The notes: generated by a model from the sequence alone, not told the origin. A stretch of 64,000 nucleotides of DNA from an uncultured Defluviitaleaceae bacterium (GCA_964492715.1 CAZBLK010000001.1:68143-132142); one strand, 5' to 3'. Positions 1-19,401 are shown, numbered from the stretch's first letter. Translations and numbers: made by a program.

Positions 1-183
1 GTTTACAAAAGCCCAGTTTGGGTTTCTTTTTATAAACTCGCTGTAATATTCAATTTGGTTTTTAAGCGAGTTTGCTTGCTCGTCTTTTTCTGTTGAAACT
101 CTGGCATAAAATGTTACACGCAGCGGTAGCTCGTAAATTGATTTGCCGTTGTTTAGCTGCTGGCGAATGTTGTATAAGTCCAT
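1..183 (-). CDS. large serine recombinase, N-terminal 61 codons only (gene continues past the left edge)
   Basis: Not in the ORF track because it is truncated by the window. Manual minus-strand translation from ATG at 183 gives MDLYNIRQQLNNGKSIYELPLRVTFYARVSTEKDEQANSLKNQIEYYSEFIKRNPNWAFVN. YARVST is the catalytic-serine motif of the resolvase/invertase domain, and this N-terminal layout is typical of large serine recombinases of Firmicutes elements. Confidence 0.8.
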   Translation of the reverse strand, partial: MDLYNIRQQLNNGKSIYELPLRVTFYARVSTEKDEQANSLKNQIEYYSEFIKRNPNWAFVN

Positions 184-281: not shown

Positions 282-1085
282 ATGGAAGGTTGTGATTTGT
301 TCGACGAAAACAGGCAGACGTATGGGAATAATTGGAACAATGATTTTAACAGTTGGAAGGAAATTGAACAGCTAAACTTTTTGGGTTGGGATTTTTCGGA
401 AATTGATGGGCTTATAGAGTATGAAGAATTAGCTTGGGATTACAAAAATATTGTTAAACAATATATTAAGCCTCAGCATAAGCTGCTTGACATGGGTACA
501 GGTGGGGGCGAGTTTCTATTAACACTAAACCACCCGCATGAAAACACGTGCGTGACAGAAGCATGGGTGCCAAACGTTCAGCTTTGTAATGAACGGCTTG
601 CGCCGCTTGGAATAACTGTTAAGCAAGTTTTTGACGATAATGTATTGCCTTATGACGACAACACTTTTGACATTATAATAAACCGCCACGAAGCATTTAG
701 CGTAAAAGAGATACGCCGAATTTTAAAGCCTGGCGGTGTTTTTATTACACAGCAAATTGGGGGCAAAAACAATGAGTGGCTTTCAAAGTATATGGATATT
801 GATTTTAAGGCAAACTTCCCAAACCATTCACTAGGAAACAATGTTGCAGAATTAGAAGATAATGGCTTTGATGTATTATATGAACAAGAAAGTTACCCTT
901 ACATACGATTTAATGATGTTAAAGCAATTGTTTATTATGCAAAAAACATTCCTTGGGAATTTAAAGAGTTTTCAGTTGAAAGATGTTTTAATAGGCTTTT
1001 GGAACTTAAAAATATTATTATGAAAAATGGATACGTGGAAAGCCTTGGGCATAGGTTTATTATTGTTTCTAAATGTGTAAAGTAA
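282..1085 (+). CDS. class I SAM-dependent methyltransferase
   Basis: Motif I LLDMGTGGGEF and later ILKPGGVF. RBS aaggagggg at 269-277 favours the ATG at 282 over 237. Confidence 0.8.
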   Translation: MEGCDLFDENRQTYGNNWNNDFNSWKEIEQLNFLGWDFSEIDGLIEYEELAWDYKNIVKQYIKPQHKLLDMGTGGGEFLLTLNHPHENTCVTEAWVPNVQLCNERLAPLGITVKQVFDDNVLPYDDNTFDIIINRHEAFSVKEIRRILKPGGVFITQQIGGKNNEWLSKYMDIDFKANFPNHSLGNNVAELEDNGFDVLYEQESYPYIRFNDVKAIVYYAKNIPWEFKEFSVERCFNRLLELKNIIMKNGYVESLGHRFIIVSKCVK

Positions 1086-1148: not shown

Positions 1149-1883
1149 TTAATTGCTTCTAGTCCGTGAAATAAAAATATTCTCAATAAAAGAAATTACC
1201 CAGTAAAGCATTAGGCCAACAATGCCCAAAACTAAAATGCCTGTATACATGTCAACATATTTAAACATAGTCCACGAGTTCATTACGTAATAGCCCATGC
1301 CGTACCTTGTTCCAAACGACTCGGCAAAAAAAAGAACAGAAAAAGACGTAGCAAGCCCTATGCGGATTGATGTAAAAATTTGGGGCAGGGCAGAGGGTAA
1401 ATAAATGTGAATTAGCTTGTCAAAAAATTTTGCACCGATAATATTAAACTGTGTTATGTACTCAACAGGCAAGTTTTTCATCGTGTCACGCAAAGCGACT
1501 GTCACTTGAAACACCATTATTAAAAAAATAATAAAAACTTTTGATGCGTCACCAATTCCAAAAGCAAGCATTATTATCGGCAAAAATGCAATTTTGGGAA
1601 TTGGGCTTAAAAGGTAAACAATTGGCGAAAGAACATAGTCCAAAAGCTTTACTGTATGCAAAGCTATGCCAAGCGAAATTCCAACAAACAATGCAAGCGA
1701 AATGCCAGCAAAAATTCTTCCTAAACTATACAAAACGTGCAAATAAATTTGGTTAGTTCTAGTGTTTAGCAAAACTGCAAAAACCGAAACAGGCTTTGGA
1801 AGAATTGCATTGTTTACAACAACAGCACATACTTGCCAAACAACCAACAAAATAATTACTCCGTATAATTTTTGGTGTTTCAT
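1149..1883 (-). CDS. ABC transporter permease (NitT/TauT-type)
   Basis: Multi-pass membrane protein with a BPD-transporter-like core. The ATG at 1883 follows gtgagg; the ATPase TGA stop (1892-1894) overlaps the alternative GTG start at 1895. Confidence 0.8.
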   Translation of the reverse strand: MKHQKLYGVIILLVVWQVCAVVVNNAILPKPVSVFAVLLNTRTNQIYLHVLYSLGRIFAGISLALFVGISLGIALHTVKLLDYVLSPIVYLLSPIPKIAFLPIIMLAFGIGDASKVFIIFLIMVFQVTVALRDTMKNLPVEYITQFNIIGAKFFDKLIHIYLPSALPQIFTSIRIGLATSFSVLFFAESFGTRYGMGYYVMNSWTMFKYVDMYTGILVLGIVGLMLYWVISFIENIFISRTRSN

Positions 1884-1891
1884 ATAAAACC

Positions 1892-2482
1892 TCACAACTT
1901 AATAATTACATCACTTAAAAGCTTTGCTTCTTCTGGGTTGTGCGTAACAAGCAATGTAGTTATGTTTCTTTCTTCCTGTAGTTTTTTAAACAATGAATAT
2001 ATACTTTCTTTTGTGGAAACATCAAGGGCGGAAAAAGGCTCGTCCAAAAGCAAAAGGTCTGGCTCGTAAAACAAAACGGAAGCTAGAGCAACACGTTGGT
2101 ACTGCCCACCGCTAAGCTTGCTAGGGTACTTTTTAACCAAGCTGTTGTCAAGCTCTAGTTCTTCTAAAAGCTTTAGTGCAGACTCTTTGCACACCTTTTT
2201 TTCTTTTATTTTTTTAAGAAGCATTACATTTTGCAGCACGGTTTTCCATGGCAGTAGCGAGTTTTTTTGTGGCATTAGCATAATTCTTGTAAAGCTTTTG
2301 TTTTTTATTTGCCCTTCGTAGTCTGTATGCACTCCAGCGATAATTTTTAAAAGAGTGCTTTTTCCACAGCCCGACTTTCCTAGCAAAGATATTACATTTC
2401 CTTTTTGTATATCCATGCTAAAGTCTTGAAGAACTTTTTCTTCGTATCCTTTATAAAATGCGTATTTTAAATTAATTTTCAT
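1892..2482 (-). CDS. ABC transporter ATP-binding protein (short, 196 aa)
   Basis: Walker A GKSGCGKST, signature LSGGQYQR, Walker B LLLLDEP, H-loop LVTHN. Confidence 0.9.
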   Translation of the reverse strand: MKINLKYAFYKGYEEKVLQDFSMDIQKGNVISLLGKSGCGKSTLLKIIAGVHTDYEGQIKNKSFTRIMLMPQKNSLLPWKTVLQNVMLLKKIKEKKVCKESALKLLEELELDNSLVKKYPSKLSGGQYQRVALASVLFYEPDLLLLDEPFSALDVSTKESIYSLFKKLQEERNITTLLVTHNPEEAKLLSDVIIKL

Positions 2483-2520
2483 CTATGCACATTAATGCTT
2501 TTTAAAAGCAGTTCCTCCAA

Positions 2521-2550
2521 TTTATGCTTGTCTACTTTATGCTTGTCCAC
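2521..2550. repeat. 15-nt tandem direct repeat x2 immediately 5' of the ATPase RBS
   Basis: tttatgcttgtctac / tttatgcttgtccac (plus strand), with one mismatch. The RBS complement tcctcc lies at 2513-2518. Confidence 0.85.
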
Positions 2551-2561
2551 TTTCGCAGTAT

Positions 2562-2750
2562 TTAATTATGTATACTTTCAGAATATTTGTCAATTGCTTT
2601 TTTGGCCTCTTTAAGTATAGAGTTTGTTGCACCAGTATACATTTCTTCGGTAATAATGCCTTTTTCGTAAAGACGTTTGTTTATTAAAAGCTTAATTTCG
2701 GTAGAAACCCTTTGCAGACAAGCTTCTTTTGCGGTAATGGTCATGTGCAT
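2562..2750 (-). CDS. small hypothetical protein with a SHOCT-like GIITEEMY motif
   Basis: ORF inside the ABC operon with RBS gaggtg before MHMTIT. LYEKGIITEEMY resembles the SHOCT short C-terminal motif. Function unknown. Confidence 0.4.
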   Translation of the reverse strand: MHMTITAKEACLQRVSTEIKLLINKRLYEKGIITEEMYTGATNSILKEAKKAIDKYSESIHN

Positions 2751-2804
2751 CACCTCAATATATTTTATGCCAGTTTGCAAAAGGTTAATACAGTTTTATT
2801 TATA

Positions 2805-2842
2805 GCAAAAAGGCATCTAGCTCCATTGGAAGTAGATACCTT
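2805..2842 (-). terminator. intra-operon hairpin plus U-tract after the binding-protein gene
   Basis: On the minus strand: aaggtatctacttccaatggagctagatgcctt followed by ttttt. Probably an attenuator or mRNA-stability element between the SBP gene and the downstream genes. Confidence 0.5.
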
Positions 2843-2853
2843 AAAATTTATGT

Positions 2854-3744
2854 TTACTTAACTTCCGCAGAAATATCAGAAAGTGAATATTCTTTTGTTA
2901 CTAAGCCTTTGTCTAAAAGCCAAGCGTTAGCTTTTTTTACATCATCTTCTGTTGGCATAGTTTTCTTTTCGTAAACAGGAAGCGCAAATTCAACTTCTGG
3001 GAAGCCCATTTGCTCAATTAAAATTGGCTTTAGTTCTTCATAGCTTGCGCTGTTTATGTAATCCACAGCTTTGTCGTATGCTTCGTAAAGCTCTTTGACG
3101 TAAGCTTTCTTTTTGTCTATAGAATCCTTTGAAAGAAGTACAATACCAGCACTTGTTTCAGTGTCGATTTTAAGTTCTACTGCGCCGCTTGCAACTGCAA
3201 TTGTACCAAAAGGCTCTGGAAGTGTTGCGCCGTCAAGCTTGTTGTTAACAAGCATTTCAAGGCGTAAAGGAATTAATGGCACTGCTGTTTTTTCAGCTTC
3301 AACGCCTGCTTCGCCAAGAATTGTGTCAGTAATATATTCAATAATTGTGTTGCTGGAAATGCCAATTGACTTTCCTTGCATTTGTGAAATTTCAGTAACG
3401 CCTGAATCTTTTCCAGCAACCATAACAAAGTATCCGTTTGTTTTTGAAGTTAAAACGCCGTCAAAGTCGTTTTCTTTTGCCATCATTACAGAAAGCAAGT
3501 CTGAAGTAGAGCCGTCAATGTTTTTACTAAACAATGCGCTGTCACGGTCGGCTGCGCTTTTAAAAAGCTCAAGCTCAACATTTTCGCCTAAAAAGCCTTT
3601 TTCTTTTGCAACGAAAAATGGAATAGAGTCAAGGTTTGTCATTACGCCAAGCTTCAATTTTTCAGGATTTTTTGCACAGCCCGAAAGAAGCATTGTCGCA
3701 CCAATGCCTAAAATAAGTAATTTTTTAAAAATAGATTTTTTCAT
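2854..3744 (-). CDS. ABC transporter substrate-binding lipoprotein (NMT1/THI5-TauA-like)
   Basis: Signal peptide with lipobox LLSGC. PBP type II-like sequence. The start ATG overlaps the ubiX stop (ATGA). Confidence 0.8.
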   Translation of the reverse strand: MKKSIFKKLLILGIGATMLLSGCAKNPEKLKLGVMTNLDSIPFFVAKEKGFLGENVELELFKSAADRDSALFSKNIDGSTSDLLSVMMAKENDFDGVLTSKTNGYFVMVAGKDSGVTEISQMQGKSIGISSNTIIEYITDTILGEAGVEAEKTAVPLIPLRLEMLVNNKLDGATLPEPFGTIAVASGAVELKIDTETSAGIVLLSKDSIDKKKAYVKELYEAYDKAVDYINSASYEELKPILIEQMGFPEVEFALPVYEKKTMPTEDDVKKANAWLLDKGLVTKEYSLSDISAEVK

Positions 3745-4325
3745 AGCTGTCCCCATTCTTTGTATAGTTCATTTTGAAACCCAAACATATTTAAAATTCT
3801 GCCAACACTTTCCCAAACCAAATCGTCAATAGTTTGCGGACGGTTATAAAACGACGGTATAAGCGGCACAATTTGTGCGCCTGCTTCACACAGATTAAGC
3901 AAATTTTTTAAATGGTTTTTGTTTAGTGGTGTTTCACGTGGGCAAACAACAAGCTTTCTGCCTTCTTTTAGGCAAACGTCTGCTGCCCTTGTTAAAACTG
4001 TGTCACCTATGCCGGCAGAAATTTTGCCGACTGTTGCCATAGAACACGGCGCAATAATCATACCAAGTGTTTGAAAAGAGCCGCTTGCAATAGAAACAAA
4101 CATGTTGTCGTTTTTGTGTATTATAACATTTTTAGCACAAGCTATGGTTTCAAAAGGTTTGCCACGCTCGTACTGAAAAACTTGTCTTCCATTATCTGTA
4201 ATAACAATGTGAAGCTCAATTTCATTTAACAAATGTTCATTTGTTAAATGGTTAACGATTTTTTCTGAATAAATGCTGCCACTTGCGCCTGTTATTCCTA
4301 AAATAATTCTTTTTACATTTTCCAC
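3741..4325 (-). CDS. ubiX: UbiX/Pad1-family flavin prenyltransferase (prFMN synthase)
   Basis: N-terminal ILGITGASGSIY flavoprotein motif, 194 aa, adjacent to ubiD and ubiA homologues. Confidence 0.9.
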   Translation of the reverse strand: MENVKRIILGITGASGSIYSEKIVNHLTNEHLLNEIELHIVITDNGRQVFQYERGKPFETIACAKNVIIHKNDNMFVSIASGSFQTLGMIIAPCSMATVGKISAGIGDTVLTRAADVCLKEGRKLVVCPRETPLNKNHLKNLLNLCEAGAQIVPLIPSFYNRPQTIDDLVWESVGRILNMFGFQNELYKEWGQL

Positions 4326-5191
4326 AAAAAATAATCTCCCAAAGTAAAAACGATAAAAACTATACTAATAATTTGATTAATAGTATATGACGCTATTATG
4401 TACTTGTTTTTTATTAAAAGCCTGTCATTTCTTGGTGCAATTATTATATGTTCAATTAAAAGCAAACTACAAATTATTGCAACACCAATTAAATATACAT
4501 AATGAAGCTTTAAAACAAAATACAAAACTCCAAGCATAAAAACAACAGCAGCATGTAAAAGTGCCGAGATTATGTGTGCGCCTTTTCTTCCAAAGCGGCG
4601 TGGCACAGAGTAAAGCCCTTCCTTTGTGTCAAACTCAATGTCTTGAATTGCATAAATAATGTCAAAGCCGGCAACCCAGCATGTTACAATTGCGGCAAGC
4701 AAAAAAGCTGTAAACGATGGCTTTCCGGTAACGGCAAGCCATGCACCCATAGGCGCACCGCCGCAAGCCATTCCAAGAATTAAATGACAAAAGTAAGTGA
4801 ACCTCTTTGAGTACGAATAAACAAAAAATATTGCAATTGCAACAGGCAAAAGGACAAGGCATGTTATGTTCAGCATAAAAGCCGAAACTGCCATAAGCAC
4901 AAATGAGCCTATAGTCAAAGCCCAAGCTTCAAAAACGCCAACTTTCCCTGTTGGAATGTGCCGCCCTGCTGTACGAGGGTTTTTTTTGTCAATGTCCTTG
5001 TCGATAACACGGTTTAGTGCATTTGCGCCTGTTCTTGCCGAAACAAGCGCAAGAAGTATCCAAAAAAAGATGGAAAGCTTTGGCATACCTCCGCTTGCCA
5101 AAACCATAGAGGTCAAGCCAAAAGGCAGTGAAAAAAGCGTGTGGGAAAACATTACAAGCTCCCCAAGGTTTGTTACCTTTTTAAATACCAT
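4313..5191 (-). CDS. UbiA-family aromatic prenyltransferase (4-hydroxybenzoate polyprenyltransferase-like)
   Basis: NRVIDKDIDKKNPRTAGRHIP Asp-rich motif and a multi-TM protein. RBS aaaggtgg favours start MVFKKV at 5191. Confidence 0.85.
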   Translation of the reverse strand: MVFKKVTNLGELVMFSHTLFSLPFGLTSMVLASGGMPKLSIFFWILLALVSARTGANALNRVIDKDIDKKNPRTAGRHIPTGKVGVFEAWALTIGSFVLMAVSAFMLNITCLVLLPVAIAIFFVYSYSKRFTYFCHLILGMACGGAPMGAWLAVTGKPSFTAFLLAAIVTCWVAGFDIIYAIQDIEFDTKEGLYSVPRRFGRKGAHIISALLHAAVVFMLGVLYFVLKLHYVYLIGVAIICSLLLIEHIIIAPRNDRLLIKNKYIIASYTINQIISIVFIVFTLGDYFLWKM

Positions 5192-6617
5192 ACGACTTCC
5201 ACCTTTTTGAAACAAGCTGTTTAATGTCATTTGACATTACAATGTCGTCAGGCCATTCTCTGTCGTGTCCTTCTGTCTTCCACTTTTTAGTTGCGTCAAT
5301 ACCTAGCCTTGTTCCAAAATGTGGCGTGCTTGAAGCGTGGTCTAGTGCATCAAGGACACCTTCGGAAAGGACTAAATCTCTTTTTGCGTCAATGTTGTTG
5401 AACACTTTCCAAGCTACTGTCGATACGTCGTGTGGGTTTACGTCTTTGTCTACAACAATAATCATTTTTGTGTACATCATTTGACCGTATCCCCAAAGAG
5501 TGTTCATAATTTTTTTTGCATGAAGCGGGTAACGCTTGTCTATGCTTACAATTACACAGTTGTGGAACACGCCTTCAAGAGGGAAGTTCATGTCAATTAT
5601 TTCTGGGGCAATAAGCTGCAAAAGCGGAAGGAAAATTCTTTCCGTAGCTTTACCCAAAAAGCAGTCTTCCATTGGGGGCTTGCCGACAATTGTTGACATG
5701 TAAATTGGGTTTTTGCGCCGTGTAATTGTTTTTACATGGAAAACAGGGTAGTCGTCTGTTAAAGAATAATACCCGGTGTGGTCGCCGAAAGGACCTTCTT
5801 TTCGCAATTCCCCAATTTCAACGTAGCCTTCAAGAACAAATTCACTGTTTGCCGGAACATAAATGTCGTTTGTCACACTTTTAACAAGCTTAACAGGCGA
5901 GTTTCTCAAAAAACCTGCAAACATCATTTCATCAATAATTTTTGGCAGCGGTGCAGTTGCGGCATAAATTGTTGCTGGGTCGCAGCCGATTGCAACAGAA
6001 ACAGGCATTCGCTTGCCAATCTTTTTGTACTTTTCATAAATTTCTCGTCCGTCTTTGTGCAAATGCCAGTGCATTCCTGTTGTATTTTTGTCATACACTT
6101 GCATTCTGTACATGCCAACGTTTTGTGTTCCTGTTTCTGGGTCTTTTGTAAACACCAATGGCAAAGTTATAAACTTTCCGCCGTCATCAGGCCAGCATTG
6201 CATTATCGGAAGCTTTGTTAAGTCTGCCTTTTCGATAACTTCTTGAGCAGGAGCGTTTTTAACTTTAATTGGAATTACGTTAATCATGCTTAACAAGTCG
6301 GGTACCATTTTAAAGGCGTTTGGAATTGGCAAATACTGTTTTAAATCTATAAGCTTACGTATTCTTGCAGCTATGTCGTCTAAGCTTTGCACCTCTAAAG
6401 CAAGGTTAAGCCGTTTTGTAGAGCCAAACGTGTTTATCAAAAGCGGAAACTCCGAACCTTTTACATTGTGAAACAAAAGCGCTTCGCCGTGGCGCTTTGA
6501 AACTCTGTCTGTAATTTCTGTAATTTCCAGCACAGGGTCAACCTCTGTAGTTATGTGCTTAATTTGCTTGTTTTTTTCAAGCACTTTAATAAAAGAACGA
6601 ATATCTTTGTATGCCAT
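5181..6617 (-). CDS. ubiD: UbiD-family prFMN-dependent decarboxylase
   Basis: Full-length similarity to UbiD (EITEITDR, LLFHNVKG, GPFGDHTGYY). Confidence 0.9.
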   Translation of the reverse strand: MAYKDIRSFIKVLEKNKQIKHITTEVDPVLEITEITDRVSKRHGEALLFHNVKGSEFPLLINTFGSTKRLNLALEVQSLDDIAARIRKLIDLKQYLPIPNAFKMVPDLLSMINVIPIKVKNAPAQEVIEKADLTKLPIMQCWPDDGGKFITLPLVFTKDPETGTQNVGMYRMQVYDKNTTGMHWHLHKDGREIYEKYKKIGKRMPVSVAIGCDPATIYAATAPLPKIIDEMMFAGFLRNSPVKLVKSVTNDIYVPANSEFVLEGYVEIGELRKEGPFGDHTGYYSLTDDYPVFHVKTITRRKNPIYMSTIVGKPPMEDCFLGKATERIFLPLLQLIAPEIIDMNFPLEGVFHNCVIVSIDKRYPLHAKKIMNTLWGYGQMMYTKMIIVVDKDVNPHDVSTVAWKVFNNIDAKRDLVLSEGVLDALDHASSTPHFGTRLGIDATKKWKTEGHDREWPDDIVMSNDIKQLVSKRWKSYGI

Positions 6618-6635: not shown

Positions 6636-6664
6636 ATTATGAATATGTTATATAATTTTGTCAA
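6636..6664 (-). promoter_or_regulatory. candidate sigma-A promoter of the ubiD operon
   Basis: Minus strand TTGACA (6664-6659), 17 nt spacer, CATAAT (6641-6636). It would give a very short leader ending at the ggaggt RBS. Confidence 0.35.
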
Positions 6665-18094: not shown

Positions 18095-18478
18095 ATGAGT
18101 AAAAAAATTATAGCAACAACAAAAGCACCAGGTGCAATCGGACCATATTCACAAGGAGTTTCTGCAAACCAAATGGTTTTCACATCAGGGCAGCTCCCCA
18201 TAAACCCAGCAGACGGCAAGCTTGTAACAGATGATGTTAAAGAAGCGACAAAGCAATGCCTTGAAAACGTAAAAGCTATTTTGGAGGAAGCTGGCACAAC
18301 ACTTGAAAACGTAGTTAAGGTAACTGTTTTCTTAAAGGATTTAAACGACTTTGCTGCAATGAACGATGTTTATAAAACTTATTTTACGGAAAACTGCCCA
18401 GCAAGAAGTGCTTTCCAAGTTGCAAAGCTTCCGCTTGATGCACTTGTGGAAATTGAAGCAGTGGCGGTTCTTCTATAA
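18095..18478 (+). CDS. RidA/YjgF family reactive-intermediate deaminase
   Basis: APGAIGPYSQG...ARSAFQVAKLP canonical RidA. Confidence 0.92.
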   Translation: MSKKIIATTKAPGAIGPYSQGVSANQMVFTSGQLPINPADGKLVTDDVKEATKQCLENVKAILEEAGTTLENVVKVTVFLKDLNDFAAMNDVYKTYFTENCPARSAFQVAKLPLDALVEIEAVAVLL

Positions 18479-19401
18479 TGCTTGACGTTTGTTTGCTTGG
18501 AACGGGCGGAATGATGCCACTTCCTGACAGGTTTTTGACTTCGCTTGCTTGCCGTTTAAATGGGAAAATACTTTTGATAGACTGCGGCGAGGGAACACAA
18601 GTTACGCTAAAGCTTACTGGGTGGGGGTACAAGGCGATTGATGTCATTTGCTTTACGCATTTTCACGCCGACCATGTTTCGGGGCTTCCAGGGCTTCTTC
18701 TTGCCATTGCAAACTCTGACCGTTCCGAGGATATTCACATTATAGGCCCTGTTGGGCTTAAAGAGGTTGTAAAGGGGCTTACGATAATTGCGCCTAAGCT
18801 TCCTTTTAATTTATTGCTGCATGAAATTGTTTCTGAAGACAATGCACTTTTTGGTGAAGGGCTTAGCCTAAGCGGTTTTAACATTAGGGCAGTGCCTGCC
18901 GAGCATAGAATACCTTGTGTTTCTTACAGGATTGACGTAAAACGCCCTGGCAAGTTTATGCCTGAAAAAGCAAAGGAGCTTGGCTTGCCTATAACTTTGT
19001 GGAATGTAATTCAAAAAGAAGGGTTTGCGGAATACGACGGAAAAGTGTACACTTCTGACATGGTAATGGGTGAGGAACGAAAAGGCATTTCAGTTTCTTA
19101 TGCAACGGACAGCAGGCCGTCTGAACGGCTTACAGAACTTGTAAGGGGTTCTGATTTATTGGTGTGCGAAGGAATTTACGGTGAGGACGAAAAGATTGAG
19201 AAGGCTATAGGATATGGGCACATGGTTTTTAGCGAAGCGGCTACTATGGCAAAAAATGGGGAAGTTGGGGAACTTTGGCTTACGCATTTTAGCCCATCTT
19301 TGACAGAGCCTGAATTGTTTTTGGACGTTGCTAAAGGGATTTTTGAAAATAGTGTTGTTGGGTTTGATAGGATTGGGAAGCAGATTAATTTCGCAGATTA
19401 G
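18478..19401 (+). CDS. rnz: ribonuclease Z
   Basis: LGTGGMMP, metallo-beta-lactamase motif THFHADH, 307 aa. Confidence 0.9.
   Translation: MLDVCLLGTGGMMPLPDRFLTSLACRLNGKILLIDCGEGTQVTLKLTGWGYKAIDVICFTHFHADHVSGLPGLLLAIANSDRSEDIHIIGPVGLKEVVKGLTIIAPKLPFNLLLHEIVSEDNALFGEGLSLSGFNIRAVPAEHRIPCVSYRIDVKRPGKFMPEKAKELGLPITLWNVIQKEGFAEYDGKVYTSDMVMGEERKGISVSYATDSRPSERLTELVRGSDLLVCEGIYGEDEKIEKAIGYGHMVFSEAATMAKNGEVGELWLTHFSPSLTEPELFLDVAKGIFENSVVGFDRIGKQINFAD

Follow-up and report, generated by a model that had tools for sequence, protein, structure and literature searches.

A conserved ubiD-ubiA-ubiX and ABC importer module, possibly for uptake of a quinone precursor, inside a spoIVA-splitting element of a Defluviitaleaceae bacterium

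Introduction

A block of seven genes is described here from a 64,000-nucleotide stretch of DNA of an uncultured Defluviitaleaceae bacterium (GCA_964492715.1, CAZBLK010000001.1:68143-132142). This whole stretch is called the window, and positions are counted from its first letter. The block (1149-6617, minus strand) encodes a UbiD-family decarboxylase, a UbiA-family prenyltransferase and a UbiX flavin prenyltransferase (together UbiDAX), followed by an ATP-binding cassette (ABC) importer with a lipoprotein substrate-binding protein (SBP), and it lies within an insert in the sporulation gene spoIVA. In related genomes the position after ubiX is occupied either by such an importer or by the early futalosine genes mqnE-mqnA-mqnC. 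We propose that the module imports a soluble aromatic carboxylate, most likely 1,4-dihydroxy-6-naphthoate, and makes a demethylmenaquinone-type quinone from it. The probability of this reading is put at about one half.

Results and Discussion

Gene content and conservation of the module

The genes of the block are the following.

6617..5181, minus strand: ubiD, decarboxylase of MqnL type dependent on prenylated flavin mononucleotide (prFMN); three UbiD domains (Pfam); TIGR03701
5191..4313 (alternative start 5230), minus strand: ubiA, aromatic polyprenyltransferase, MqnP-like; PF01040
4325..3741, minus strand: ubiX, flavin prenyltransferase (prFMN synthase, MqnM-like); PF02441; NF004685, 206 bits against a cutoff of 188
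3756..2854, minus strand: SBP gene, lipoprotein of the NMT1/SsuA/TauA/ThiY class; Pfam NMT1 and NMT1_2; SsuA_fam; lipobox LSGC
2780/2744..2562, minus strand: small open reading frame (ORF) of 60-72 amino acids (aa), lineage-specific
2482..1892, minus strand: ABC ATPase, short at 196 aa; PF00005; Walker A, LSGGQ, Walker B and H-loop legible in the translation
1895..1149, minus strand: ABC permease, BPD_transp_1 (PF00528), resembling TauC, SsuC and NtrB

Translation of the window returned, on the minus strand and with unchanged coordinates, all seven ORFs that an initial annotation of this DNA had read, and the tight packing described there is equally borne out. ubiD and ubiA overlap by 11 nt (computed with the 5191 start), ubiA and ubiX by 13 nt, ubiX and the SBP gene by 16 nt, and the ATPase and permease genes by 4 nt. 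Gaps between genes of the operon occur on either side of the small ORF and nowhere else. The ubiA start at 5191 is preferred over 5230 on the gene call of the Logan contig L001 and on the overlap in relatives (L numbers designate the loci and contigs compared). The UbiX enzyme supplies the prFMN cofactor to UbiD, and SBP, permease and ATPase together would constitute a complete importer of the NitT/TauT type. Every protein of the element is a singleton at 90% identity; the nearest homologues are found in another family, at 72% identity or less.

The SBP family (alignment A1 of 40 homologues, the nearest only about 45% identical) was scanned against 185,579 species genomes, one per species, and the best 80 loci were kept. 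Among these 80, ubiD/ubiA/ubiX genes adjoin the ABC genes in 21 distinct loci of Clostridia, which show two gene orders. Fourteen loci (type A) have the order of the window, UbiD-UbiA-UbiX-SBP-ATPase-permease, and come from several species of Anaerocolumna, from Lachnoclostridium, Mahella, an Oscillospiraceae metagenome-assembled genome (MAG), Clostridiaceae 35-E11 and others. In the seven loci of type B, from Clostridium species and Vallitalea, the order is permease-ATPase-UbiX-UbiA-UbiD-(polyprenyl synthase)-Ndh2-like protein, all transcribed toward the permease end, with the SBP gene divergent. Complete genomes carrying the module are CP121445, CP133190, CP048000, CP058649 and CP121688. Four loci from outside the Negativicutes among the best 80 are without UbiDAX, two of them ending at a contig edge. 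In about 55 Negativicutes loci (L016-L085) the SBP, ATPase and permease genes stand in a conserved setting of housekeeping genes, MnmA-like and others; the genera are Selenomonas, Megamonas, Mitsuokella, Anaerovibrio, Sporomusa and Propionispira. The SBP tree places the Negativicutes together in a single derived clade nested among UbiDAX-linked Clostridia, and all of its basal branches are UbiDAX-linked Clostridia.

The reverse scan, in which 15 module UbiDs were aligned (A2) and metagenome contigs were searched, gave 80 loci. ABC genes are present in all five loci with a UbiD at least 65% identical and in three more distant ones, making eight metagenome contigs. The window UbiD is 67-72% identical to the UbiDs of ABC-linked modules and 52-63% identical to those of loci without ABC genes. 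The ABC-linked UbiDs form one clade of the UbiD tree, and its main lineage groups are also those of the SBP tree. The initial annotation had allowed that the ABC genes might not be conserved alongside ubiDAX elsewhere; linkage in two gene orders, in 21 species genomes and eight metagenome contigs, rejects this, and the importer is a conserved partner of ubiD-ubiA-ubiX.

Two Clostridium genomes show a reduced form of the module. C. lacusfryxellense (L023) and Clostridium sp. CF012 (L083/L096) keep UbiA, UbiX, the ABC genes, the Ndh2-like protein and the polyprenyl synthase; UbiD is absent from one and present as fragments in the other (tblastn pieces at 6090 and 6245 of L083). This form is odd, since UbiX is not known to have a role without a UbiD partner.

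Futalosine-type enzymes and alternation with mqnE-mqnA-mqnC

The window UbiD scores 651 bits on the NCBIfam equivalog TIGR03701, "menaquinone biosynthesis decarboxylase" (cutoff 495.9), and 430 bits on the model of Escherichia coli UbiD (cutoff 788). The UbiA protein is above the cutoff of the subfamily TIGR01475 (261 bits against 181). The MqnP/MqnL/MqnM set is the trio of SCO4491, SCO4490 and a UbiX-type protein in the prediction of Ravcheev and Thiele (2016, PMC4746308). The same three enzyme families occur in the window in the same order. The window trio differs in that an SBP-dependent ABC importer is attached to it where early mqn genes might stand, its type of UbiD forms a clade of its own, and its UbiA stays below the MqnP cutoffs.

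Early futalosine genes were found in ten of about 70 UbiD loci without ABC genes, and the UbiDs of these ten are 54-62% identical to that of the window. Several of these loci (L111, L125, L168) have mqnE-mqnA-mqnC immediately after ubiD-ubiA-ubiX; MqnE (TIGR03700) and MqnC (TIGR03699) are above their cutoffs, and the middle gene encodes a VitK2_biosynth protein. A tblastn search of 180 sequences found homologues of MqnE, MqnA and MqnC solely in those ten loci. They are missing from the window and, within 10 kb, from all of the roughly 30 loci with ABC genes; the ten loci, for their part, have no ABC genes. Two alternatives fill the place after ubiX, enzymes for making the head group or the importer, and the two arrangements never occur together. 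This alternation suggests that the importer supplies the soluble head group, and it is the strongest support for that idea. It also marks the UbiD family as the probable futalosine decarboxylase (MqnL), in agreement with Ravcheev and Thiele.

The view of the initial annotation that the enzymes are of the late futalosine type thus agrees with the MqnL equivalog and with relatives in ubiD-ubiA-ubiX-mqnE-mqnA-mqnC operons. Its idea of an imported exogenous aromatic carboxylate is favoured by the comparison of loci, the ABC genes and mqnE-A-C being mutually exclusive in one slot.

The same observations bear on a different explanation, in which mqn genes elsewhere in the genome make the head group, the importer recaptures a leaked or community intermediate, and the late steps on the element are redundant or a replacement. 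In its favour, mqnC, mqnE, mqnZ and mqnP/L/M have been reported from Negativicutes with this transporter family, and mqn genes are often scattered, so that their absence within 10 kb proves little. However, the contrast between no such genes near any of about 30 ABC-linked loci and their presence in ten of about 70 other UbiD loci speaks against it. Lineages without quinone pathways are mostly Bacillota and Chloroflexota according to a genomic survey (PMC13386864), the supplements of which give no per-genome quinone calls for the relevant taxa. The standing of the element proteins as singletons at 90%, with nearest homologues in another family at no more than 72%, also argues against an optional role beside a core pathway, and we consider this explanation rather unlikely. 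In the Negativicutes of the best 80 loci (Selenomonadaceae, Sporomusaceae and Megamonas), which are reported to use the futalosine pathway, this pathway and the transporter family thus co-occur across genomes even where their genes are unlinked.

Genomic context in relatives

In the relatives from Clostridium, Vallitalea and Clostridiaceae the module stands beside an Ndh2-like Pyr_redox_2 protein with a long C-terminal extension (its membrane part). The same loci contain a polyprenyl synthase, ApbE, FMN_bind lipoproteins, and NusG_II and Hpre_diP_synt_I proteins, which may correspond to EetA and EetB; a DcuS/CitA-like two-component system is added in the type-B loci. Flavin-based extracellular electron transfer (EET) in Listeria is an eight-protein system that includes Ndh2, DmkB, FmnB and PplA, with demethylmenaquinone made by DmkA and DmkB (PMC8906456). 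The Ndh2-like protein, polyprenyl synthase, ApbE and FMN_bind lipoproteins of the relatives parallel the named Listeria components. The difference is that the one-step 1,4-dihydroxy-2-naphthoate (DHNA) prenyltransferase DmkA gives way to UbiA, UbiD and UbiX together with the ABC importer. The EET genes (Ndh2, EetA/B, the FMN_bind protein PplA and the ApbE protein FmnB) are absent from the window and occur only around the modules of these Clostridium, Vallitalea and Clostridiaceae relatives. This context suggests that the product of the module would most likely be a membrane quinone used for electron transfer.

The flavin proteins of these loci could also be taken to mean that the ABC proteins import riboflavin or flavin mononucleotide (FMN), for UbiX and, in the relatives, for flavinylation by ApbE, the substrate of UbiA and UbiD being made internally. 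In every case ubiX has the ABC genes as direct neighbours, ApbE and FMN_bind proteins accompany the module in relatives, and NMT1-like RibY proteins are predicted riboflavin binders. The account of the Listeria EET locus in PMC9973259 includes flavin-trafficking transporter subunits. However, the window and seven related loci gave neither an FMN riboswitch nor any other Rfam match at gathering score, the genes that alternate with the importer are those of the head group, mqnE-A-C, and not riboflavin genes, and fourteen loci as well as the window have the module without flavinylation genes. Flavin supply is therefore regarded as a distinctly unlikely function.

In the Clostridium-type loci L023, L027, L058, L061, L081, L083 and L084 the SBP gene is followed by genes for a 635-640-aa U32-family protein and a class III aminotransferase. 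Both are on the strand of the SBP gene, and the arrangement is seen even in loci without UbiDAX. Assignment of the U32 protein as a hydroxylase of the UbiU/UbiV type was considered and dropped: it is below all cutoffs (TrhP, UbiU, UbiV), its best match is TrhP-like, and it is treated as uninformative.

Benzenoid chemistry would offer another function for the same enzymes, with 4-hydroxybenzoate or a related phenolic acid as substrate and a polyprenylphenol, or a benzoquinone formed via unlinked enzymes, as product. The UbiA protein scores alike on 4-hydroxybenzoate prenyltransferase and MqnP models and is below the cutoffs of both, the ABC-linked UbiD clade is distinct from the mqn-linked one, and in seven Clostridium-type loci a member of the U32 family, some of which are O2-independent ring hydroxylases, adjoins the SBP gene. 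On the other side, the UbiD passes the MqnL equivalog and reaches only 430 of 788 bits on the E. coli UbiD model, and the U32 protein, best matched by TrhP-like proteins, is above cutoff for neither UbiU nor UbiV. Neither the window nor the type-A loci encode a hydroxylase or an O-methyltransferase, and without these a benzenoid product would not be redox-active. A benzenoid substrate is considered improbable.

Fold of the binding protein

The AlphaFold model of the SBP has a pLDDT of 92.6. The top Foldseek matches are 3un6, SsuA, Thi5, TauA, ThiY, a thiamin-binding SBP and PqqT. The PqqT protein, of the same fold class, was found with bound pyrroloquinoline quinone (PQQ), an aromatic tricarboxylate quinone. 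The fold class accordingly accepts small anionic and aromatic ligands, a quinone tricarboxylate included, and specificity is not fixed by the fold. Residues Arg71, Lys156, Arg165, Ser134, Thr137, Tyr227 and Trp279 are invariant in alignment A1, and the lipobox residue Cys27 is conserved in at least 90% of the family. These invariant residues would fit an aromatic anion. The possibility that the protein is an enzyme like MqnA or MqnD is not supported: it is a lipoprotein with ABC partners, and neither enzyme appears in its 36 PDB sequence matches or in the top 50 of Foldseek.

The importer of the window has the same SBP fold, permease family and ATPase as the NitT/TauT importers (SsuABC, TauABC, ThiXYZ) and PqqT. 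Its context differs from that of the NitT/TauT importers in being quinone biosynthesis and not sulfur or thiamin metabolism. The likeness itself might be taken as evidence that the solute is an unrelated nutrient, for example a sulfonate, nitrate, bicarbonate, hydroxymethylpyrimidine or a thiamin-type compound, and that the linkage to ubiDAX is due to shared regulation or chance. The best family matches are SsuA_fam, NMT1/THI5, TauC and NtrB, the nearest structures are SsuA, TauA, ThiY, Thi5 and the thiamin-binding SBP, and the Negativicutes copies are found amid housekeeping genes. However, the linkage survives complete rearrangement of the gene order across Anaerocolumna, Lachnoclostridium, Clostridium, Mahella and Vallitalea, and the SBP and UbiD trees agree in their main lineage groups. 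No riboswitch for thiamin pyrophosphate was found in the window or the seven related loci, and the NCBIfam scores of the SBP and importer on equivalogs named for a substrate class are all far below the cutoffs. An unrelated nutrient is accordingly a very unlikely substrate.

Proposed mechanism

In the mechanism that we propose, the SBP lipoprotein would capture a soluble aromatic carboxylate outside the cell. The likeliest candidate is 1,4-dihydroxy-6-naphthoate, with which the early part of the futalosine pathway ends. The permease and ATPase would bring it inside, the presumed direction of flux being inward. The MqnP-like UbiA would add the polyprenyl tail, and the MqnL-like UbiD would remove the carboxyl group with the prFMN cofactor provided by the MqnM-like UbiX. 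The product would be a membrane quinone of the demethylmenaquinone type and would serve quinone-dependent electron transfer. The importer would in this way replace de novo supply by MqnE, MqnA, MqnC and the other early steps, in a host that presumably lacks the early pathway genes.

Several points weigh against this mechanism. Missing from the element are a polyprenyl-diphosphate synthase, an assignable C-methyltransferase and any enzyme that uses a quinone. The UbiA protein is under all three MqnP cutoffs (NF041586, 258 of 430 bits; NF041584, 221 of 420; NF041585, 196 of 375). The ABC-linked UbiD clade is separate from the mqn-linked one, and its members may therefore act on another substrate than true MqnL does. 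The PDB relatives of the SBP are all only 13-18% identical to it, and their ligands span sulfonates, pyrimidines, thiamin and PQQ. Mitsuokella, Megamonas and Selenomonas are reported to have a de novo futalosine pathway (Ravcheev and Thiele); Negativicutes that make menaquinone de novo keep the importer, which is thus not confined to hosts lacking synthesis. Lastly, the second of the two promoter-like sites listed here would allow the ATPase and permease genes to be transcribed separately.

6636..6664, minus strand: sigma-70-like promoter upstream of ubiD, TTGACA-17-CATAAT, 11/12, consensus match only
2565..2593, minus strand: second sigma-70-like promoter match, 11/12, 83 nt upstream of the ATPase gene, consensus match only

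A GGAGG ribosome-binding site is located between the first of these matches and ubiD. In relatives the intergenic distance between the SBP and ATPase genes is 8-60 nt.

The spoIVA-splitting element

The block of ubiDAX and importer genes is cargo of an element that splits spoIVA. The features on which this assignment rests are the following.

8071..6839, minus strand: spoIVA 5' fragment, residues 1-411, with SpoIVA_ATPase and SpoIVA_middle and no SpoIVA_C
6810..6847, minus strand: attL, TCAATACAT followed across the break by ATTGAGTGTAACAAACAGAAGTGT
6754..6799, minus strand: inverted repeat, perfect over 17 bp with a 12-nt spacer, AAGAAAAGACATTTTGC and GCAAAATGTCTTTTCTT, read from the sequence
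1..183, minus strand: large serine recombinase, first 61 codons in the window; the full 544-aa gene is at 4316..5950 of L001

The initial annotation had spoken of an insert, and at its left junction the insert is confirmed. Homology to SpoIVA ends after SAPSIH, at residue 411 of 492, and TIGR02836 is matched at model positions 1-402 of 492. The ORF of the fragment continues to 6728 through 36 codons derived from the element. The two closest SpoIVA relatives, 84% and 80% identical and from Defluviitaleaceae MAGs, are intact at 492 aa. The core and the element-side arm (ACAAACAGAAGT) of attL recur at the left junction of a complete element in L093, with which the left junction of the window, TCAATACAT followed by ATTG..GT.ACAAACAGAAGTGT, matches. 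The reverse complement of the arm is present at the right junctions of L092 and L093. The inverted repeat lies about 40 nt inside the left junction, in the element-derived tail of the truncated spoIVA ORF, and could be a terminator or a protein-binding site.

The whole recombinase was read from L001/L002, a 13.9-kb Logan contig identical in sequence to the window; the readable part of the host genome amounts to 64 kb plus 6 kb. The protein has the domains Resolvase, Recombinase and Zn_ribbon_recom and belongs to the integrases of PHROG 95. Over residues 1-534 it is 60-61% identical to the recombinases of L092 and L093, the genes of which abut spoIVA 3' fragments. This identity and the shared left junction argue that the block is carried by a member of a spoIVA-targeting element family, in keeping with its initial description as insert cargo. 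By analogy, the element would be about 8.3 kb long.

The right end of the element is different. The last 10 codons of the recombinase, after residue 534, diverge from the relatives (L002 9575-9740, left of window position 1). Neither the P arm (ACTTCTGTTTGT) nor the crossover core nor a sequence coding for SpoIVA_C is present beyond the recombinase gene in L001/L002 or anywhere in the window. In place of the right junction there is a hairpin, followed by an M28 peptidase gene with its own promoter-like sequence. Searches by tblastn with a B. subtilis query and with close homologues found no spoIVA 3' fragment in the window or L001/L002, nor did one turn up within 10 kb of three further spoIVA genes that are truncated. 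The SpoIVA C-terminal domain as a database query returned many 91- and 97-aa fragments, none of them from the 204-kb contig of the host. Comparison with an intact spoIVA relative for a simple deletion was uninformative, since the flanks differ between the two. No second att junction with a 3' gene fragment, as in a skin-like element, was thus found at the far end. Without P arm, core and 3' fragment the element seems no longer mobile, and its host perhaps cannot make a full SpoIVA. There are two alternatives: this copy has become immobile and left spoIVA broken for good, or the genome has the 3' part of the gene at another place.

Sister elements in spoIVA

Among the 120 best SpoIVA matches, about 30 are truncated proteins of 417-460 aa that lack SpoIVA_C. 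The search with the C-terminal domain gave scores of stand-alone SpoIVA_C proteins of 91 or 97 aa, including those of Ruminiclostridium papyrosolvens DSM 2782 and R. sufflavum. Contigs L093-L095, which have the R. papyrosolvens spoIVA 3' fragment, show a complete element of 7.7 kb. Its order is spoIVA 5' fragment, agrB-like gene, small peptide, histidine kinase, radical-SAM (S-adenosylmethionine) protein, major facilitator superfamily transporter, recombinase (547 aa) and spoIVA 3' fragment, the last overlapping the stop codon of the recombinase gene. The same junction of recombinase and 3' fragment is seen in L092.

Other sister elements carry AAA/CHAT defence-like genes, a toxin-antitoxin pair with a 1589-aa helicase, or glycosyltransferases. 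The initial annotation had held that metabolic cargo, rather than phage genes, would be unusual for an intervening element. This cannot be maintained for spoIVA elements: with defence, toxin-antitoxin, glycosyltransferase, or agr-like quorum-sensing and radical-SAM genes on board, non-phage cargo is normal for them. A non-prophage intervening element is already described in PMC5595907, and skin elements without common cargo genes have also been described (bioRxiv 10.1101/2022.02.25.481979).

At least three different junction sequences occur within one stretch of about 30 nt of spoIVA. The window element and L093 break after SAPSIH. The break of L086/L088 (11203-11230) is 27 nt further, at GAAACCGAG followed by GTATT, and that of L090 (6273) is at the first site, after SAPSIH, with an unrelated sequence on the element side. 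These junctions suggest that several element families may share spoIVA as their target.

The att arm motif ACTTCTGTT(T/C)GT also occurs just upstream of the recombinase genes of complete elements (L093 8331; L092 2305, minus strand), where it may be an autoregulatory binding site. Upstream of the window recombinase there is no copy with one mismatch or fewer. Relatives of the recombinase, 44-60% identical, are found on IMG/VR contigs L180-L189 classed as viral, some of them at a contig end, which would suit a recombinase of phage origin. No member of the SBP family was found in the IMG/VR viral collection.

Sporulation genes described as split, in sources that include PMC5595907 and bioRxiv 10.1101/2022.02.25.481979, are sigK (skin), spsM (SPbeta), spoVFB (vfbin), gerE (gin) and yabG (yin). 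The spoIVA gene is not among the split sporulation genes in the published lists found. The skin-type elements share with the present one a mother-cell sporulation gene split by an element that encodes a large serine recombinase, and complete spoIVA sister elements have the recombinase gene directly beside the 3' gene fragment, an arrangement also reported for skin. The window element differs in its target, spoIVA, and in its cargo, a quinone module, and its copy is without the last 10 codons of the recombinase, attR and the spoIVA 3' fragment. The spoIVA gene, a frequent target of recombinase elements with very varied cargo, is an addition to the list of split sporulation genes.

Other features of the window

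282..1085, plus strand: class I SAM methyltransferase, Methyltransf_11, element cargo outside the conserved module

The methyltransferase is present as the initial annotation had it. Its orientation was misread as divergent: it is convergent (tail-to-tail) with the operon and divergent solely from the recombinase gene, which starts at 183 on the minus strand. Its suggested membership in the quinone module is not upheld, the protein being a generic Methyltransf_11 member with no homologue in any related locus. As a candidate MenG/UbiE it scores 24 bits against a cutoff of 158, and its best PDB match is the generic LahSB (2e-6).

The small ORF has no match in Pfam or NCBIfam, a weak match to a PHROG of unknown function, and no counterpart in any related locus examined. 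A role as recombination directionality factor found no support in the Pfam, NCBIfam or PHROG matches and was set aside. The window from 8 to 43 kb is ordinary chromosome, with genes for Obg, L21/L27, PPDK, a topoisomerase subunit and RuvB, and no quinone genes were found in this examined part. A gene pair for a Ribonuc_L-PSP and a metallo-beta-lactamase-fold protein is shared by the window (18095-19401) and L098 (4060-5392). It is the sole synteny near spoIVA with the 80%-identical relative, both flanks of spoIVA being otherwise rearranged. The metallo-beta-lactamase-fold protein of the pair has a weak Apyc1-like match, below cutoff.

Conclusions

Importers of soluble quinone precursors have been predicted but not identified, and soluble menaquinone precursors are probably exchanged between gut microbes (PMC4746308; PMC5738691). 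No description of an importer linked to MqnP/L/M was found in the literature searched. The nearest precedent is salvage of DHNA by organisms with only menA and menG/ubiE, as in Lactobacillus genomes, cited in a review, and Prevotella melaninogenicus, cited by Fenn et al. (PMC4746308; PMC5738691). The logic is the same: late prenylation is kept, early steps are missing, and the soluble head group comes from neighbours. However, DHNA salvage uses MenA and 1,4-dihydroxy-2-naphthoate, does not need UbiD or UbiX and has no identified importer, whereas the window module has a dedicated importer gene-linked to the enzymes. The enzymes, the transporter class and the element type are of known kinds; the combination, the alternation with mqnE-A-C and the spoIVA target are new.

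More tentatively, and with the odds on balance against it, the SBP-ABC system may be the first identifiable importer of a menaquinone head-group precursor, 1,4-dihydroxy-6-naphthoate or a close analogue. With MqnP/L/M it would make up a portable six-gene cassette, captured here by a spoIVA-targeting element, that would enable otherwise quinone-less fermentative Clostridia to respire or to perform extracellular electron transfer on a cross-fed intermediate. An intervening element of a sporulation gene would then be spreading a respiratory trait.

The module is a concrete, conserved and clonable candidate for the missing precursor transporter, and its SBP is a binding protein open to ligand-binding tests. 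Cultured hosts with complete genomes are Anaerocolumna sedimenticola, Anaerocolumna sp. AGMB13025 and MB42-C2, and Vallitalea pronyensis. That import replaces synthesis is the prediction drawn from the alternation with mqnE-A-C. If it is correct, Clostridia annotated as quinone-negative would need re-evaluation, and the module would tie precursor cross-feeding to flavin-based extracellular electron transfer.

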